Shown here in pieces: positions 9,560 to 35,402 of a stretch of DNA of 64,000 bases. The notes beneath the pieces are model-generated. The model was not told the origin of the DNA. It made no database searches and saw only the letters and a program-made list of their open reading frames with translations. A program made the position numbers and the translations under genes. Position 1 is the stretch's first letter, and each line of letters begins with the position of its first letter. The DNA is from Methanobacteriota archaeon. GTDB lineage: Archaea > Thermoplasmatota > Poseidoniia > Poseidoniales > Thalassarchaeaceae. The DNA lies in assembly GCA_018650285.1 (NCBI GenBank), contig JABIGF010000014.1:683-64682 (forward strand). The letters run 5' to 3'.

Positions 9560-12500
9560 TCAGTCAAGGCGGCGGAAAGAACCGCCATCTTCCATTTGCC
9601 ACTTCACACCATCTGCTTGCTTGTAAATAGTCACTCCATCAGCCTGTTCATAGTCTCCGCCACTTGGTAGATTCAGATATGATTCAATAACTTGCCCCCG
9701 GCTAATTGTTGAATCGACTTCACTGTCCGATGATGGTTCGGCCGTTATTTCTTCATCAACTATTTCCCCACCATCATTATTCTCAACTATTGATGGATGA
9801 ATATATGCAGCTTCAACGGATTCAATATCTGAATCAGATGTTTCACCAAATAACGATTCTTCATTATATTCTCCAATAATTGGCACCTTGCGATCACGTA
9901 ATGAGAACAATAAGGTGATAGCTCCGATACCAACTAATAACAGTGCCAAAGCAGAAATTATCCACACAATTGGGCTCTTCCCTGCAACATCTGCATTTGC
10001 ATCATCTTGTGGGTCTTTCTCGTCATCATCAACTACTCCATCAGTTGCGAACCTTGGAGATAGGAGAACTGCATTTGTTTCCCAGCCACCTATTGAGTTA
10101 TTACCCGATGCTATTACCTCTTCAAATCCGATTGAAAGGGAATGAATACCCGATATTGAGTCGCTCTCTTCCACATTACAATAGAATTCAGCCCTGCCAG
10201 CAGGCGTTACCTCTGTTACAGAAGAAGTGCAAACAAACGGCCCAACCGTAGAGTTTGGTGATAATTGAACAAATCCATTAGCTCCCCCACTATTTGTCAC
10301 CGCACAATTGACGAAATGTGTTGAGGTTGTTAAATTACCAATACCTCCATTATATGCGATGCCTATTTGTGTTATTTCTTCATCAAAATAACTGCACGAA
10401 ATATGCCATTCTGGCGCTGGTGGAGGCGTTGCAAAAACCTCCAATGAATCACTGCTTGAAGGAACCACCCAATCAGAAGTTGAAAGAGTCATTGAAATGG
10501 TATGTGCACCAATTGAAGGAATGTCAATTAGATAATTACCAGCCCCACCTGTTGGATAAATTACCTCAATAATTTCTCCATCTAATGATACCTCTAGTTG
10601 CATTGAACAACCAATTGAACACATTGCATCGTATGATACTTCAAACATTCCAGGATGCAAAGTAGTTGGAACAGGTGTCTGAATTGCAAATGTCAAAACC
10701 CCATCAGGTGGCAAGAGAGACATTGTTGCATCTGGCCCGGAAACAAAATCTGGTGCTATGTTCCCATACTCATCAACAACCTCAATCTCGAAATCGTATA
10801 CCCCTGGAGATAATGATGATGTATCAAGTAAATGAGTTCCTCCAAAGAGTGGTGAATAAGATGAACGCGCCCCCCTTATTCCATGAAGCATCGCTTCAGC
10901 CAAAGCATGATGGCCTGCATCTGTGAAATAGCCATTCTCATCTTTCCATTCTGGAGATGTAGGGCCATCATCGGATAGAGGAATAAGTGTCACCCAAGGC
11001 CTTGTTGCGGCAATATCATAGATGACCTTATTTTTCTCTTGGTTTACCTGATATGCTCCATAAGTATGACATCCTGCTGGGCCTGAATTAATGTGGCATA
11101 CATAGTCAGGATCCAAATGTACCACACCAATGTAAATCTGAGCGCCGGTTGATACTAAATTATCAAGTAAGATTGGATACGATGTTTGCCAAACACTTGT
11201 TGATGACGATGAATAATCACGCAATGGAATTAATGTAATGATATCGGGATTTGCTGCAATAATATCATCCTTCTTAGCAATGAAATCTTGAACTGCACCC
11301 CATGAATTTGAAATGTTTGTCAATTCAACTCCAGGCCATGTTTGATTGAGATGATTATGAATCAAACCAATTGTGCTATTATTTGCATTACTAGCCCCTA
11401 AGCCCATTGTTTCAGTTGAGCCAAGAGCAACGTACGAAGAGACGGCTTGAGAATCATTAGCAATGGTTTTTGAAAGTGAGGTTGTCAAAGAATAATCATT
11501 CGGCCCACTAACATGTAATGTTGCCGAAGAGTTGTCTGCCAAAGTAGCAAGCCACTCACCATATACTGCCCATGATTGGCTCGCAGTAGGATTGTTTGTG
11601 ACCTGTAAATTCCTCTCAGAAGGTGCCGTACTATCTATCAAATGAATCATATTTATTTCTGGTTCCGACCAGTTCCCTTCATTTTGATTGATGTCAATAG
11701 CGCGGAAAAGAATATCCCACCAACCAGATTCAGCAGAAGTTAGTGAAACTTTACCCATGTATAATTTTGAAACCTCGTCGTATGAAAGTTGAGTTACAAA
11801 TTCTTCCTCGGAATCAGATGGATTAATGATGTAAGCAAATACATCTAAATCCGTTCTCTCCTCAAGTGCAGATGCTGCGAATGTAATTTCTGTCCCAGCC
11901 TCTACTTCACAAATGGCTACAACTACTGTTTCACAACCACTTACTTGCATAGTTTCAAGTTCTGGGAATACAGGCTTCAGAATTAATGCCTCATACCATG
12001 CACTCACGCCTGAAGGATTACGTACGTTTCCAGCTGCATCCTCCATCCATAACCAAAGAGCCATTGAATCACCATATTCTGATGAATGTTGTCCAGTATC
12101 ATAAAAGCCAACATAGACATTGTGTAAAGTATCCCAAGACATTGTTGCTGTTGAGGCTGGAGGCCATGAAGAAATTACACTTAATCCCTCCATATACCAA
12201 TCAATTGTAGCATCAGATTCATTGCCTAATACGCTGACACGAATTTCGACAAGATCACCAACTCTAGCGTATGTGATTGGTGCGCCATCAACATAGAACG
12301 AAATATCACTAACTTCTGGTATGATGTCATCAATGAAATTAATCCATAAATCACTGAGTTCAATCCCATGGACATCTAAAGCAGAACCGCTAGATATCAC
12401 AGGGAATGTTGCAAAACTCGCTTCTGCCCATCGCCCACTAGTGACATTTACATGCTCATTTATAGACGCCAAAATGCTTCCATTCCCACCTAATCTTTCT

Positions 12501-26051: not shown

Positions 26052-27629
26052 ATGGTCACAAATAATTCTGAAATCAAATTTAATCCTCAAATGTGTGAGT
26101 GTAACAATGTCCCAATTAGTGAATGTGAAGATACAGGGTGTTTGAACTGTGATTGTGACACATATTTACCAAAATGGTTCTGTTGGACTTGGCCTAGTTC
26201 TTTTTGGTGGTGGGTACTTTGGTCAGCGGGATGTGTGTTGTTGGGATTTGGATTATTTTCTAGCATAACATCATTATTAGGCACTAAAAGTGGAGCAGGT
26301 TTGATTCCATTACTTTTGTGCGCACCTGGCTTATTTATGATGGGATTTGCTAGCCCCAACCCATTCCAACAAATGATGAATGTTGCAGTTCCCAATACTC
26401 AAATTGGTGAATGGAATGTTGATCCAAAGCCACCAATGGAATCATCTCAATGGCATTTAAACAGGCTGGAATGGAATGAAAAGTTGGGAGAATGGATTCC
26501 TAATCCATTGTCAAGATATGAACAAGACGGCCCCACTATTTCTGTAACACAAGATGGTGAGGAATGGATTTTATTAATGGATGATGAAGAAATGGGTAGG
26601 TTTGATTCTGAAATAGAAGCATCAAAGGAAATGATGAAATCATTGAAAAAATCAGACAAATTAGATGCACAGGAAATGATATTTTCCGAACACCCTCGCC
26701 ATAATCGTTTCAGAGCCCTATTTAATGCGTCACCACCTCAATTTTCCGCCACCTTTTTCCTTTACATTTTTTCTGTGTTGTTTCTAATGGGTGGTTGGTT
26801 TGGTTTCCCTAAGGATGCAAGAATCGAATTATTTGGAATTACTGTTGGATTGATGTTACTTGGAGCAGCGAACTTGTCAATTTCATTTTACAACAATAGG
26901 AAAATCTTGGAAGCATGGGATACAGTAACTTCAATTGTGAAATTTGTTGATGCTGGTCACAATGAATTTGTTGGGCAAGTTCGCCCAATTAACGATGTTT
27001 CAAATTCAGTATTGCATGTTGATGGCTGCAAAGACAAGAGTTGGACATTCAGAAATTTAGCTGTGTGGTCATGGTCTTATGACGCTACAGAAACATGGAC
27101 CGAACGATATTACGATTCTAATGAAAAGAAATGGAAAACGCGAACTAGAAGAGAAACAAGGCATGTTCGTGGTGGCAACCATGTTTCGGATTATCTACTA
27201 CATGATGGGACTGGGGGGATTTTAGTAAAAACATCTACTTTTGAAGATTTCAACACAGGTCCTGCAATATGGTCTAGTAATAAACGTGGTAAGAAGGGAT
27301 GTGGGCCTTATGATAGACCACGACATGGCGGATCAATGAGCCATGATTGGTCATTATATGCACTCGCTTTTGGAGACCCTACCTATGTCATGGCTAGAGT
27401 AACAAATAGGCCGCATGATGATATCCCAAGAGGGACTGTTTCAGAAAATGCCAGTAGAGTACATCACACATTGATGGCTATTGGGGAAGATGCACCGCGT
27501 AGGCATGCTAGGATATTGAAGGGGACTGAGTTTTCAGTATTGAAGCCAAAGAGGTCGGCATTTGGAAACTTTGGACCTTCGGCTTTGCTAATTATTTCAA
27601 TGCTAATCGTGCTGATGACATCAATGTAA
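26052..27629 (+). CDS. polytopic membrane protein with a Cys-rich N-terminus and a GIDE-like C-terminal domain (tentative)
   Basis: Cys cluster CECNNVPISECEDTGCLNCDC. Five hydrophobic helices. The segment VGQVRPINDV...YLLHDGTGGILVKTSTFEDF resembles the bacterial GIDE (PF12483-type) pattern F-x-L-x-D-x-T-G-x-x-x-V. That family assignment is from memory only. Confidence 0.6.
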   Translation: MVTNNSEIKFNPQMCECNNVPISECEDTGCLNCDCDTYLPKWFCWTWPSSFWWWVLWSAGCVLLGFGLFSSITSLLGTKSGAGLIPLLLCAPGLFMMGFASPNPFQQMMNVAVPNTQIGEWNVDPKPPMESSQWHLNRLEWNEKLGEWIPNPLSRYEQDGPTISVTQDGEEWILLMDDEEMGRFDSEIEASKEMMKSLKKSDKLDAQEMIFSEHPRHNRFRALFNASPPQFSATFFLYIFSVLFLMGGWFGFPKDARIELFGITVGLMLLGAANLSISFYNNRKILEAWDTVTSIVKFVDAGHNEFVGQVRPINDVSNSVLHVDGCKDKSWTFRNLAVWSWSYDATETWTERYYDSNEKKWKTRTRRETRHVRGGNHVSDYLLHDGTGGILVKTSTFEDFNTGPAIWSSNKRGKKGCGPYDRPRHGGSMSHDWSLYALAFGDPTYVMARVTNRPHDDIPRGTVSENASRVHHTLMAIGEDAPRRHARILKGTEFSVLKPKRSAFGNFGPSALLIISMLIVLMTSM

Positions 27630-30683: not shown

Positions 30684-32435
30684 ATGAGGACTATTTCATT
30701 TTTCATATCAATAATATTCATTACCATGTTATTGTTTTCACAATTACCTGAAGACCATTTGGAATCTAAAGTGTTAACATCAGTGTATTCCAATGAATAT
30801 GATGGATACTATGTTAATTTAACAGATGTCAGCATTGTAGATTTACATTCAGAATTAAATGAATTAATATCAACAAGTCACACAAAAATATACTATGTAG
30901 ATAATTGGGACCATATTGCCGAATTTCATAAATCACCTTATGATGAAGGTAATATCACATTATTTTACACACAAAGGTCACATGATAGTAATGATTCTAG
31001 ATGGTATGATGGGGGTACACTAATTGGAAACGATGATTCTTGGAATCGTGAACATATTTGGCCTAAGTCTCATGGTGATTTCACTACAGATGATATTGTT
31101 GGAACAGATCTTCATAATATAGTCCCTACAGACTATTCAGTTAACTACGATAGGTGGGCAAAGGATTTTGGTGAAGCTAGTACCCCTCACAATGAATGTT
31201 CTGGATGCTATTATGCAGATTATATTTGGGAACCACCAAATATTGTCAAGGGCGATGTGGCGAGAATTTTATTTTACATGGATGTCAGGTATGAGGGTTT
31301 AGGAGATGAACCCTCATTAGAATTAGTTGACAAAACATCAACATATCCTACATCGTCATCTGGAAAAACTGAGTTGGGAAAACTTTGCACGATGTATCAA
31401 TGGCATGTGTTAGACCCTGTAGATAGCAGAGAACTTGAAAGAAATATGGCAATATTTGAGATTCAAGGAAACCGCAACCCATTCATTGATTATTCTGATT
31501 TTGTAATGGATATTTGGGGTGCAGATTGTGATTCAGATTTTGACAATGACGGCCTTTGGGGTATTGAAGATTCGGATGATGATAATGATGGTGTAGATGA
31601 TAACAATGATTCCTGCCTCAGAACAATTATTTCAAACGAAAGTGTGAACGATGACGGTTGTGGCCTTTATGAATTGGATTCTGATGGAGACGGATACACT
31701 GATGATGTTGATGCATTTGTCAATGACATCAGTCAATGGGCTGATTCAGATAGTGATGGATGTGGAGATAATTTAGAGGGGAACAATTCAGACTCACTGC
31801 CTAATGACCCCTCTGAATGTAATGATTCAGATGGAGATGGAATCGGTGACAATTCTGATTCATGCCCTGGTTTTGATGATGCAATTGATGTAGATTCGGA
31901 TAATGTTTCTGATGGTTGTGATGATTTTATTGACAGTGATAATGATGGAGTCATTGATGAAAATGATGATTGTGAAAATACACCATTAGGAATACAAACA
32001 ACACCAAATGGTTGCAACTTAATATTCAATTCAAATAATAACCCCAGTGGTGAATCAAAATTCCCAGTGATTGGAATATCAATCGTATTGTTGATTGTCC
32101 TGATAGCTATTGTATCCATCACAGTTGTTAGATCAAATCCGAATTTACTTCAAAACATATTCAATAAAGACACCACAGAAATTACACCATCAACTAAACC
32201 AGAACCGCCCAAACATTGGTCGGATGATGAGGGGAATAATTTCCGTAAAATGGGAGATAACCCTGTTCAAATTTGGGATGATGATGAAAAAATTTGGAAT
32301 ACTTTTGAAAGCGAAATTAAGAAACCTGAACTGCCAAAACATTGGTCAGATGGTGAATTTAATTATAGACAGATTGCAGGCGGACCAATACAAAAATGGG
32401 ATGATAATAACAAAAAATGGGATTCTGAGGGCTAA
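30684..32435 (+). CDS. membrane-anchored extracellular endonuclease I-family nuclease with TSP3-type Ca-binding repeats and a cytoplasmic tail bearing two WW-like repeats
   Basis: Signal/anchor ISFFISIIFITMLLF. Endonuclease_1 signatures WNREHIWPKSHG, DLHNIVPTDYSVNYDRWAKDFG, KGDVARILFYMDVRYEG and QGNRNPFID. Asp-rich repeats (DSDGDGYTDDVD, DSDGDGIGDNSD). TM VIGISIVLLIVLIAIVSITVV. The ATG at 30684 was chosen because the upstream part of ORF 30474.. overlaps the NFACT gene. Confidence 0.85.
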   Translation: MRTISFFISIIFITMLLFSQLPEDHLESKVLTSVYSNEYDGYYVNLTDVSIVDLHSELNELISTSHTKIYYVDNWDHIAEFHKSPYDEGNITLFYTQRSHDSNDSRWYDGGTLIGNDDSWNREHIWPKSHGDFTTDDIVGTDLHNIVPTDYSVNYDRWAKDFGEASTPHNECSGCYYADYIWEPPNIVKGDVARILFYMDVRYEGLGDEPSLELVDKTSTYPTSSSGKTELGKLCTMYQWHVLDPVDSRELERNMAIFEIQGNRNPFIDYSDFVMDIWGADCDSDFDNDGLWGIEDSDDDNDGVDDNNDSCLRTIISNESVNDDGCGLYELDSDGDGYTDDVDAFVNDISQWADSDSDGCGDNLEGNNSDSLPNDPSECNDSDGDGIGDNSDSCPGFDDAIDVDSDNVSDGCDDFIDSDNDGVIDENDDCENTPLGIQTTPNGCNLIFNSNNNPSGESKFPVIGISIVLLIVLIAIVSITVVRSNPNLLQNIFNKDTTEITPSTKPEPPKHWSDDEGNNFRKMGDNPVQIWDDDEKIWNTFESEIKKPELPKHWSDGEFNYRQIAGGPIQKWDDNNKKWDSEG

Positions 32436-32492
32436 AATAACTATCTAGCACGAGGATTATATTAAAATAATATATAATTACTCCATTTATTC

Positions 32493-35402
32493 ATGCGCGG
32501 AATAGTGAAAGTAGTTTGCCAATTATCATGTCTTATGATATTTGTATTAATGTTGGCACCCTCTGCTACGGCTGAACCAAATGATACAGCGAGTGGAGCG
32601 ACAATTATCGGAACTGGAACTACATATTCATATGTTTGTTGGGATGATGATTGCTCATATGGAATAGACCATTATGATTATTACAAATTTTATGTATATT
32701 ATGGCGATGACGTTACTGTTTATGTTCAAAATACCTGTGACATAGATTATGTTAACGTATATTCAAAAATCTATGCTAATAACGGATGGGAAAGTGACTA
32801 CAGGCTAGGTACCGGCGGATATACATCATGCGGTTCTCCAACTGCTGTAACGTACGACTGGACACATACTGGTACCAATGGATATAGGTATGTGAAAATC
32901 ACGGGCATAGATGACGATGCCTCCTTTAACGGAGATGACCAAGCCAAAGTGAAGATTGTATTATCTATTGATTCCTCTGATCGAGATCGTGATTATGATG
33001 GATACGATGACGATGTTGATGATTGCAAATATGATGATGGTGATTCATATCAAGATAGAAATGGTTGCCCAGATTCTGATAGTGATGGTTGGTCAGATTA
33101 TGGAGATGATTGTCCCAATGATTACTATGAACATTTAGATACAGATGGGGACGGACATTGTGATGGAGACGATGAATTTCCAAATGATGATACCCAATGG
33201 GAGGATTATGATGGCGATAACCATGGAGATAATTCAGATGGAAACCAAGGAGACCACTTCCCCTACGATAACACACAATGGTATGACACAGATGACGATG
33301 GTTATGGTGACAACTCTGATGGAAATAATCCAGACCACTGTAGATTCGTAGAAGGATATAGTTCTCAAGATAGAAACGGTTGTCCTGATACTGATGGGGA
33401 TGGATATAGCAACCCAGATTCTACATTCCCTGCACATCCAATTGGAATTGCTGATGCATTCATATATGATTGGAATGAATGGAATGATACCGATAGTGAC
33501 GATTATGGAGATAATTCAGACCAATGTATAGAAGTTGAAGGAACTAGTGCATTCAAGGTGTTTCATAGAATTTGGAATGGGACATCAGAAGTAGGACCAT
33601 TAGCGATAGAAGTAGTTTCGTGGGACCATTATGGTGGAGATGCTAAAGATTTGACTGATATTATTTATTCACAAATGACTTTAGAAGAACTTGAAGAAGC
33701 AACAGAAATCTTAGAATATCTGAATTTTGATTATACGCCTCGAAACGATAACCCTTACCCTCTTGGTGCTGGTTCAAATTACTACTTCCAACATTACCCT
33801 GGATGTATTGATTCTGATGGAGACGGATTTGAAGATGATACCGATCATTTCCCCCAAGACTCAACTCAATGGGTTGATTCAGATGGCGACGGTTTTGGAG
33901 ACAATGCCATGCATCCAGCACTTGTAAATTATGACCCATCTAATTGCATGAATGAGATAAGAAATGCAATCAATAATGGAGAATATCAAACAAGCGCAAA
34001 AGGAATAGATGTGCTATTATGTGTGGCATGGGGTGCAGAAAATGATTTCATTGCAATTATGGACGAAGATTATGTTTGTGATAACGGCAACACCATTCCT
34101 CAAAGATGGGTTAATGATGAATGGGATGATTGTGGAGATAATTCAGATGAGGGTGTAGATGATTATGATTCTTTATTCAATCCAAACTCTAGATATTTTC
34201 ACCATCAAGATTATGATATCGGCTGGGCCATTCCTGGTGCATTTCAAAGCGATGATTGCCCCTTAGATTCGGGAACAAGCACAATGGATAGATTTGGATG
34301 TCTTGACACCGATGGTGACGGATATAGTGATGCTGACGCAAATTGGGCCATTGAGGATGGGGCTGATGCTTGGCCTATTGATTCTAGCCAATATTCCGAT
34401 ACCGATGGAGATGGGTATGGAGATAATTCAGCAGGTACACAGGGCGACTCTTGTCCGTTTGGGGATAGCACACAATCCTCTACAATAGACAGATGGGGTT
34501 GCACTGATACTGATGGAGATGGGTATAGTGACGCTGACGGCGGATGGTTAGCACACCCTGATGGTTCTGCAGATGCTTTCCCCAACGATGACACACAATG
34601 GCATGACATAGATGGAGACAGGCACGGAGATAACGCTGATGGAACCGATTATGATCATTTTACTATTGACCCTACACAATGGAAAGATGAAGATGGAGAT
34701 GGATTGAATAAATCTGAATCAACATCTCATTGTGGCGATGATGTAAACGGAAATAATCCCGATTTATATCCAAACGACCCTACTCAATGTAAAGATACTG
34801 ATGGGGATGGATTTGGAGATAACTCCGAAGGAACCACAATGCCTGATTTGTTCCCTCTTGATGCCACTCAATGGAGTGATATTGATGGAGATGGTTATGG
34901 AGATAATGGTATTGGAAACAATTCTGATTCATGTATTAGCAACTATGGGACATCAACTGTGGATAGATACGGATGTCCTGACTCAGATTCTGATGGCTAC
35001 AGTGACATGAATGGATTCTTTGCAACTGTCACAGATAAAGCAGGAAAGGGTGATATCGGTTCAATTTTGACTTTGGCTATTGTCCCATTCCTAGCAATTA
35101 TCATTATTACTGTTTTACAAATTTCTAAAAAGAAGAAAAATGATGATGGATTAAATCGAGATGATATCCATGAGGCAATGCAGGATGCTGTTGCATGGGG
35201 TCTTGATGAAGCAGCATATCAATCAACTGCATCTACATCTAGCCAACCACCACGAGCAGAAATGCCACCACCTAGTAATGAAAGGGCTTTACCACCAAAT
35301 TCAAACCAAGGTGATTCTGGAGAATGGATTGAGCAATATGACCAGCAAGGAAATATGTATTACTTCAACCCAGAAACACAAGAATCAAAATGGGAATTAT
35401 AA
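32493..35402 (+). CDS. secreted, membrane-anchored protein: PPC-like N-domain, about 20 thrombospondin-type-3-like Ca-binding repeats, an LDLa-like module, a TM helix, a Pro-rich segment and a C-terminal WW domain
   Basis: Signal peptide ending APSATA/EPND. The EPNDTASGA...HYDYYKFYV pattern matches the pre-peptidase C-terminal domain. The repeats D-x-D-x-DG-x-x-D (DTDGDGYGDNSD and similar) recur throughout. TM ILTLAIVPFLAIIIITVLQI followed by KKKKND. The last 27 aa form a WW domain. Confidence 0.85.
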   Translation: MRGIVKVVCQLSCLMIFVLMLAPSATAEPNDTASGATIIGTGTTYSYVCWDDDCSYGIDHYDYYKFYVYYGDDVTVYVQNTCDIDYVNVYSKIYANNGWESDYRLGTGGYTSCGSPTAVTYDWTHTGTNGYRYVKITGIDDDASFNGDDQAKVKIVLSIDSSDRDRDYDGYDDDVDDCKYDDGDSYQDRNGCPDSDSDGWSDYGDDCPNDYYEHLDTDGDGHCDGDDEFPNDDTQWEDYDGDNHGDNSDGNQGDHFPYDNTQWYDTDDDGYGDNSDGNNPDHCRFVEGYSSQDRNGCPDTDGDGYSNPDSTFPAHPIGIADAFIYDWNEWNDTDSDDYGDNSDQCIEVEGTSAFKVFHRIWNGTSEVGPLAIEVVSWDHYGGDAKDLTDIIYSQMTLEELEEATEILEYLNFDYTPRNDNPYPLGAGSNYYFQHYPGCIDSDGDGFEDDTDHFPQDSTQWVDSDGDGFGDNAMHPALVNYDPSNCMNEIRNAINNGEYQTSAKGIDVLLCVAWGAENDFIAIMDEDYVCDNGNTIPQRWVNDEWDDCGDNSDEGVDDYDSLFNPNSRYFHHQDYDIGWAIPGAFQSDDCPLDSGTSTMDRFGCLDTDGDGYSDADANWAIEDGADAWPIDSSQYSDTDGDGYGDNSAGTQGDSCPFGDSTQSSTIDRWGCTDTDGDGYSDADGGWLAHPDGSADAFPNDDTQWHDIDGDRHGDNADGTDYDHFTIDPTQWKDEDGDGLNKSESTSHCGDDVNGNNPDLYPNDPTQCKDTDGDGFGDNSEGTTMPDLFPLDATQWSDIDGDGYGDNGIGNNSDSCISNYGTSTVDRYGCPDSDSDGYSDMNGFFATVTDKAGKGDIGSILTLAIVPFLAIIIITVLQISKKKKNDDGLNRDDIHEAMQDAVAWGLDEAAYQSTASTSSQPPRAEMPPPSNERALPPNSNQGDSGEWIEQYDQQGNMYYFNPETQESKWEL

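Follow-up and report, generated by a model that had tools for sequence, protein, structure and literature searches.

The WW domain is a three-stranded antiparallel sheet with two signature Trp residues 20-23 positions apart, the second of them followed two or three residues later by a Pro. Two other described systems also come close to the element studied here. DUF2510 (PF10708, the bacterial pattern 'GWYpDP...RYWDGtaWT') is a short Trp-rich beta element found beside membrane anchors, and sorting signals (PGF-CTERM/archaeosortase, PEP-CTERM, LPXTG) are C-terminal elements common to unrelated surface proteins of one lineage. We analyzed a 64,000-nucleotide stretch of Poseidoniales DNA (the window; positions 683 to 64,682, forward strand, of contig JABIGF010000014.1, assembly GCA_018650285.1, family Thalassarchaeaceae) in which a membrane-anchored endonuclease I ends in two tandem repeats of a small Trp-rich module. 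As in DUF2510, the module is a short Trp-rich beta element next to a membrane anchor, and the RYWDG..W core of DUF2510 resembles the last hairpin of typical members (YWDGDAW, WWNGTDW); as with sorting signals, it is shared by the C-termini of unrelated surface proteins of one lineage. A sorting signal, however, consists of a motif, a helix and a basic stub and is cleaved, whereas the tails described here consist of a helix, basic residues, a long tether and a folded cytoplasmic domain of 33 amino acids (aa). We lean towards a model where the endonuclease tail is made of two diverged tandem copies of a new domain, used as a cytoplasmic docking handle. The gene is laid out as follows.

30684 to 32435, forward strand: gene of a type-I membrane-anchored endonuclease I of 583 aa, carrier of both tail modules (open reading frame (ORF), Pfam and orthologs).
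30840 to 31490, forward strand: extracellular Endonuclease_1 catalytic domain, residues 53-269 (PF04231, E 4.8e-34).
31491 to 32066, forward strand: Asp-rich calcium-type stalk (TSP3-like, DxDxDG) with a short Asn-rich spacer.
32067 to 32129, forward strand: single membrane helix VIGISIVLLIVLIAIVSITVV, with an Arg coming next.
32130 to 32198, forward strand: cytoplasmic linker of 23 aa, RSNPNLLQNIFNKDTTEITPSTK; AlphaFold2 (AF2) confidence is low here, at the N-terminus of the tail model.
32199 to 32312, forward strand: tail module copy 1, PEPPKHWSDDEGNNFRKMGDNPVQIWDDDEKIWNTFES (PEPPKHW...NTFES; 75.9 bits, E 6.5e-21; predicted local distance difference test (pLDDT) 93.2).
32313 to 32324, forward strand: inter-module linker EIKK, at a dip in pLDDT between the modules.
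32325 to 32432, forward strand: tail module copy 2, PELPKHWSDGEFNYRQIAGGPIQKWDDNNKKWDSEG (PELPKHW...DSEG; 66.1 bits, E 7.5e-18), at the extreme C-terminus.

A previous, sequence-only reading of the window had described two tandem repeats after the membrane helix of the endonuclease. This was borne out, with 19 of 36 positions identical between repeat 1 and repeat 2 (53%, BLASTP E 2e-12), a similarity that on this alignment is far above chance. Every detail it had listed was also present: the [PL]PKHW start, the FR/YR pair, the second Trp 19 or 18 positions on and the W-D-D-x4-W stretch. We extended its boundaries by a conserved 'PE' lead-in, giving module lengths of 36-38 residues for the two copies, with the stop codon directly after repeat 2. 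The ratio of nonsynonymous to synonymous substitution rates (dN/dS) was 0.05-0.12 for repeat 1, about 0.25 for repeat 2 and about 0.2 for the catalytic domain. Both repeats are therefore under purifying selection comparable to that acting on the catalytic domain.

Structure prediction points to a discrete fold. With a 24-sequence alignment as input, AF2 modelled repeat 1 at a mean pLDDT of 93.2, with four strands (KHWS, NFRK, QIWD and IWNT). The whole tail, for which the input held only five orthologs, was modelled at a pLDDT of 75.9 with the same four strands in each repeat and lower confidence in the linker. The module is thus predicted to be an independently folding four-stranded antiparallel beta-meander of about 33-38 residues. 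The family consensus is EP.v.QQWTDenG.TWR.MsDGs..WWnGtdWq. Column conservation, computed over 133 sequences, reaches 99-100% for D9, G12 and W33, 93-96% for W15, R16, W25 and W26, and about 80-88% for W7, T8, D20, G21 and G28. In the model, D9, G12, D20 and G21 would form the turns. Each strand holds one conserved aromatic residue (W7, W/F/Y15, W26 and W33 in repeat-1 numbering), and we infer that W7, W15, W26 and W33 line up across the strands as an aromatic ladder on one side of the sheet, with R16 and W25 on the other side. The window repeats retain the core W7, D9, R16, W26 and W33 in both copies.

To see how far the module recurs, C-termini were inspected and profiles were searched. Many single-anchor proteins of the window's genome terminate in small Trp-rich modules, and three further proteins align with the repeats at their C-terminus.

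Contig C1: tail module EQWVDDNGVTWHRQPDGVLLYWDGDAWVPAN.
Contig C14, outside the window: tail module YVDPTGVHWRQHPDGNVDWYDSVSGQWVAY.
Contig C19: tail module QQWSDEAGNTWRTMDNGTTLWWNGTDWQQV, an independent member (E 5e-6) found with a profile seeded with the repeats and two other tails of the genome.

With a profile made from the repeats and other tail sequences of the genome (A1), single copies of the module turned up in 39 of 41 related genomes; all 17 high-quality genomes among them had it. A broader profile (A2) scored 64.9 and 51.4 bits on the window repeats, placing both in the family. In a 301-genome sample of the phylum, A2 matched 51 genomes, every one of them Poseidoniales, and gave no match in the sister-order genomes or other Thermoplasmatota of that sample. 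A search of 1.84 billion protein cluster representatives returned 255 matches at E<=1e-3. Among the best 150 of these were 131 full-length module matches, all 131 of which finish 0-6 residues short of the C-terminus. An upstream membrane helix is present in 80 of the 131, those long enough to show one. Helix and module are separated by a spacer rich in A, P, Q, E, S and T, whose length varies from 14 to 131 aa (median 34 aa). Across the family, the 10 aa that follow the helix contain on average 1.49 Lys and Arg residues and those that precede it 0.49, an excess that by the positive-inside rule indicates a cytoplasmic tail. The ectodomains carrying the module include fasciclin (3-8 copies), PKD/FG-GAP, TSP3 and PPC domains. 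Apart from the endonuclease orthologs (G000, G001, G011 and metagenomic relatives), no protein was found with a tandem pair, and repeat 1 is the only internal module copy seen anywhere.

Pfam held no family for the tail, for either repeat or for eight other tails, and no NCBIfam model, CTERM models included, matched the module. The DUF2510 model gave no match on the window repeats, which differ from DUF2510 in their longer hairpin (WDDDEKIW). Genome-wide it returned noise only (11.2 bits at an unrelated C3 locus and 8.1 bits, E 9.2, on the C1 module; threshold 24 bits). A literature search found nothing joining Poseidoniales with WW domains and nothing relevant on prokaryotic WW-like domains. 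On these searches, the module is an undescribed domain family confined to Poseidoniales.

Several candidates were set aside. Short module ORFs of 76-115 aa, considered as soluble carriers, were traced to truncation at contig ends or, for one of them, to a frameshift within a QPV repeat, so that the short module-bearing ORFs checked yielded no soluble carrier of this module subtype. In one relative (L113, G224:C3:243800-245400), the module is out of frame with its TSP3 ectodomain; the frame changes inside a QPVAAQPVAAQ repeat, so the cause is a frameshift or else an assembly slip within the low-complexity tether. P0011, P0012, P0013, P0023, P0067 and P0098 were rejected as members, being unrelated repetitive proteins that share only a 'W[ND]G..W' or 'DENG.T' hairpin. 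P0011, P0012, P0067 and P0098 are very large and hold 6-28 copies of a 'G.vL.W[ND]G..W.P' beta-hairpin matching the last hairpin of the module; the hairpin motif itself is therefore widespread beyond Poseidoniales in quite different architectures.

A related tail, here called class A (consensus vDeDGtEWW.De.GvWWYR....dW), is found on nine surface proteins of the genome. Aligned to the module with hhalign (P 1.6e-5, probability 79%, 29 columns), class A is, by profile comparison, homologous to it. Both occur together in 50 of the 301 genomes, with one extra weak module match, and both are missing from 13 small-genome Poseidoniales (genera g12-g16) of that sample. A soluble acidic protein of about 230 aa without a membrane helix (C2:33112-33825, forward strand, outside the window) ends in a class A module, YYVDDENVEWWRDDDGAWWYRMPGDEDWYPGE. 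ORFs of similar size (about 237-266 aa) with class A are found in most of the class A-bearing Poseidoniales genomes. No Pfam domain was found in the soluble protein, and its neighborhood held no informative operon. The presence of class A on a soluble protein fits a cytoplasmic interaction module.

Taken together, the terminal position on a tether, the shuffling among ectodomains, the conserved aromatic surface, the purifying selection and the co-inheritance with class A favor a role as a docking handle. In such a model, a single membrane anchor would leave the domain dangling in the cytoplasm from its flexible tether of 14-131 aa, rich in Ala, Pro and Gln, and the domain has been shuffled onto ectodomains as unrelated as fasciclin, PKD/FG-GAP, TSP3, PPC and, in the window, endonuclease I. 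The aromatic face of the domain would dock to a cytoplasmic partner (a peptide or a protein) common to the carriers and thereby connect surface proteins with the cell interior. One candidate ligand would be the proline-rich stretches in the tails of other surface proteins, and polyproline motifs are 6.6-fold enriched in the cytoplasmic tails of this genome. In the endonuclease lineage, tandem duplication of the handle could have added avidity or allowed two partners to be held at once. This architecture of adhesion-type ectodomain, helix, tether and adaptor-like module is nearer to eukaryotic adhesion receptors than to any described prokaryotic anchoring system.

Several points weigh against this model. 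The docking role is drawn from the combination of features above, and the partner is hypothetical. On their alignment to the family, the window repeats are divergent members: W15 is replaced by F/Y and W25 by I/K, repeat 1 has N at the G21 position, and the last hairpin is extended by two residues. These changes at near-invariant Trp positions and in the hairpin suggest that binding by the window copies may differ from that of typical members or be weaker. The tandem-tail model has a predicted template modelling score of 0.47, so it gives two beads and says nothing of their mutual placement, and the ladder geometry is drawn from strand limits alone, not from coordinates. Finally, a single ancestral gain or loss, rather than a shared partner, could explain the common distribution of the module and class A.

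The WW domain is the first alternative to be weighed. Under this explanation the repeats would be divergent true WW domains whose loops have become shorter; they would share ancestry with eukaryotic WW domains and with that of the neighboring gene, and would read PPxY/PPLP-type motifs. The neighboring gene (32493 to 35402, forward strand) encodes a 969-aa surface protein that carries the following feature after its membrane helix.

35322 to 35396, forward strand: canonical WW domain (PF00397), residues 944-968, at the cytoplasmic C-terminus.

This domain scores 30.8 bits against a cut-off of 26.9 (37.2 bits in a whole-genome scan) and matches the Protein Data Bank (PDB) WW domains of PRPF40A/Prp40/WBP4/TCERG1. 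The likeness of the module to WW domains (PF00397, spliceosomal FBP11/PRPF40A/TCERG1) is apparent: each has about 35 aa and forms an antiparallel beta-meander with conserved Trp and with an aromatic pair after a 'DG' turn. Both occur on cytoplasmic tails, and the tails of this genome are rich in PPLP/polyproline motifs; proline-rich candidate ligands are plentiful in neighboring tails. The three best PDB matches of the module profile are all WW domains (FBP11, TCERG1 and PRPF40A). Using hhalign, the module aligned through its DG hairpin with a set of nine spliceosomal WW sequences, and class A reached P 0.0028 against the same set. All of the module's signals are sub-significant, however, with E 0.16-0.76 for the PDB matches and P 0.018 over 11 columns (probability 2.5%) for the alignment. 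The class A profile had no match in the PDB. The Pfam WW model does not match the repeats even at E<=10, and across the genome it detects only the WW domain of the neighbor, plus one noise match of 11.9 bits elsewhere.

The predicted structure also disagrees with a WW domain, as AF2 gives four strands instead of three and the family has four or five conserved Trp instead of two. The spacing between Trp residues is 18-19 (W7 to W26) or 18 (position 15 to W33), shorter than the canonical 20-23, as the sequence-only reading had remarked. No Pro is conserved in the column after the last module Trp (21% at best), and the family is limited to one archaeal order. The register is different too: that reading had started a WW domain at LPxxW, whereas the weak alignments match 'R.m.DG...WW....W' to 'hk.pDGr.YYYN......W', placing WW strands 1-3 on module strands 2-4 and leaving 'LPKHW' as an extra N-terminal strand. 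What it had taken for an extension, W-D-D-x4-W, is the fourth strand of the predicted domain. The resemblance to WW domains that it had noted reached significance in no test, hhalign against the nine WW sequences included, but its other suggestion, a new small Trp module, is supported by the predicted fold (pLDDT 93) and by recurrence on other membrane-protein tails. The argument it had drawn from the neighbor stands in part: the canonical WW domain is there and in the same topological position, but kinship with the module is not detectable by sequence comparison. By Pfam score, strand number, Trp spacing and C-terminal Pro the module is not a true WW domain, although its PDB matches are suggestive, and we consider this explanation unlikely. 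As for two more sites that the reading had proposed to pool with the repeats, 9563-9655 is a real tail module, but of another class (class B, see below), and 26451-26507 is not a member. The latter, Trp-rich WHLNRLEWNEKLGEWIPNP, lies inside a polytopic 525-aa protein, away from the C-terminus, and its profile E is about 8.

The four-stranded meander also resembles the blade of a beta-propeller (Kelch, WD40 and the BT4663 two-component-regulator propeller), a unit of 35-45 aa. The modules could then be free-standing blades that assemble in trans or self-associate, clustering surface proteins, with the endonuclease providing two. The best Foldseek matches of both the single module and the tandem are propeller blades (BT4663, HIRA, WDR26, Kelch), with a query-normalised template modelling (TM) score of 0.55-0.68 for the single module, and the 'WW[ND]G..W' hairpin recurs in repetitive proteins picked up by the profile. 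These matches are non-significant: the single module reaches an E of 2 at best and the tandem 0.019 at best, the latter at a TM score of 0.34 and a root-mean-square deviation of 11 A. In most carriers just one copy hangs from a long floppy tether, and AF2 is very confident in the isolated monomer. Free-standing blades therefore appear rather improbable to us. Even less probable is an extended form, where the tails of different surface proteins, together with soluble adaptors, would supply modules that join in trans to make ring-like hubs beneath the membrane, as blades or as self-complementary aromatic sheets, with the endonuclease donating two blades.

We give equally little credence to a role as a membrane-interface anchor or topology plug, with the Trp-rich sheet lying on the inner membrane or blocking translocation of the C-terminus and having no specific partner. 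Trp does favor membrane interfaces and the module always follows a membrane anchor, but the tether is long and variable (14-131 aa), and the module is net acidic (about -5 for repeat 1), which is unfavorable at an anionic membrane surface. The helix and its positive-inside residues already set the topology, and a soluble protein also carries the homologous class A module. Conservation is tight at the turn and Arg positions, as expected for a specific fold with a specific surface. A functionless lineage-specific tail, chance or low-complexity repeat, can be discounted: the two-copy arrangement is limited to a few species of one genus, but the internal repeat (E 2e-12), the order-wide family, dN/dS of 0.05-0.25 and the confident fold all oppose it, and the test that the sequence-only reading had set for a low-complexity tail, no predicted fold and no recurrence, gave both a predicted fold and recurrence and so refuted it.

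Beyond class A, the genome holds other classes of tail.

9563 to 9670, reverse strand: class B tail module LPSGGDYEQADGVTIYKQADGVKWQMEDGGSFRRLD, at the C-terminus of a 1937-aa surface protein.
C13:23528-23638, C5:122268-122378 and C16:12027-12134: class C tails of the same genome.

Class B (consensus LP.GG.Y...G.T.Y..pDG..W.M..DGSF) has four members in the genome. It is weakly related to the module, judging from an hhalign P of 0.003 and a cross-match of the class B hidden Markov model to the C1 module; its profile matches in the PDB were discarded as unrelated beta-hairpins such as DsbG. Class C is a Pro/Trp tail with the consensus (A)PPLP..GLP.GW..EQW.YYG.QW. It was found in 64 of 64 sampled Poseidoniales genomes, in 1-11 copies each, and was absent from the other Thermoplasmatota sampled. 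These 64 include the 13 genomes without the module and class A, so the absence of the module and class A there is not due to a lack of surface proteins. Like the module, classes A, B and C are found at the extreme C-terminus of giant surface proteins, after a membrane helix and a tether. Unlike it, each has its own consensus, and the module profile cross-detects no other class. Other giant single-anchor surface proteins have cytoplasmic tails with zinc-ribbon-like CxxC...CxxC elements, acidic runs or 'GWTIEQL.DW' helix-like motifs (for example C3:104725-108336, C6:64691-68401, C7:87472-90855, C18:15298-20136, C22:24444-26588 and C27:122538-127481). This genome appears to draw on a repertoire of small modules for its protein tails.

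The endonuclease assignment of the host protein is clear, with a PF04231 score of 118.6 bits against a cut-off of 25 and profile positions 4-232 of 235 covered. The motifs NREHIWPKSHG and HNIVPTDYSVNYDR are recognisable, and the endonuclease I structures 1oup/1ouo gave a weak phmmer match. In the stalk, a match to the type-3 repeats of COMP has an E of 4.4e-4, and the Pfam TSP_3 match is weak. The N-terminus of the 583-aa protein is hydrophobic and signal-like. Its start codon is ambiguous, at 30684 or at about 30726; the orthologs P0007-P0009 and L033/L034 start at positions equivalent to that of the window endonuclease. A protein search restricted by region gave only four orthologs of the whole endonuclease, and the gene order NFACT, endonuclease, WW protein is kept in two congeneric genomes.

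Both genes of the endonuclease/WW pair (30684-35402) have a G+C content at third codon positions (GC3) of 0.25-0.26. Long ORFs of the genome have a mean GC3 of 0.344 +/- 0.041 and a 5th percentile of 0.282. The pair thus falls below the 5th percentile, which fits acquisition from a lower-GC donor. As the tail module is specific to Poseidoniales, this donor would probably be another lineage of the order. Against the two congeneric orthologs, the synonymous substitution rate (dS) is 0.056, nearly none, in the segment 32121-32198 (residues 479-505, part of the helix and the linker). Elsewhere in the gene, the repeats have a dS of about 1.0-1.7, the catalytic domain one of about 1.4 and the stalk one of about 0.4. 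This contrast gives the gene a mosaic look, as from recombination or gene conversion, or points to nucleotide-level constraint in 32121-32198.

In the surface ocean, few archaea are more abundant than Poseidoniales (Marine Group II), which, to our knowledge, have never been cultured. Nor do we know of any account of what keeps their large surface proteins (adhesins, proteases, nucleases) in place, sorts them or links them to the cell interior. The module family provides a concrete object for this question of anchoring and sorting. The tandem copy on a surface DNase is a natural construct for work on binding and avidity, and the split between the 50 genomes with the module and class A and the 13 without is a ready phylogenetic profile for a partner search. 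We know of no prokaryote in which a trans-assembled cytoplasmic 'tail code' has been described; if the modules did assemble into ring-like hubs, the Poseidoniales coat of adhesins and hydrolases would be organised by a modular code of this kind.

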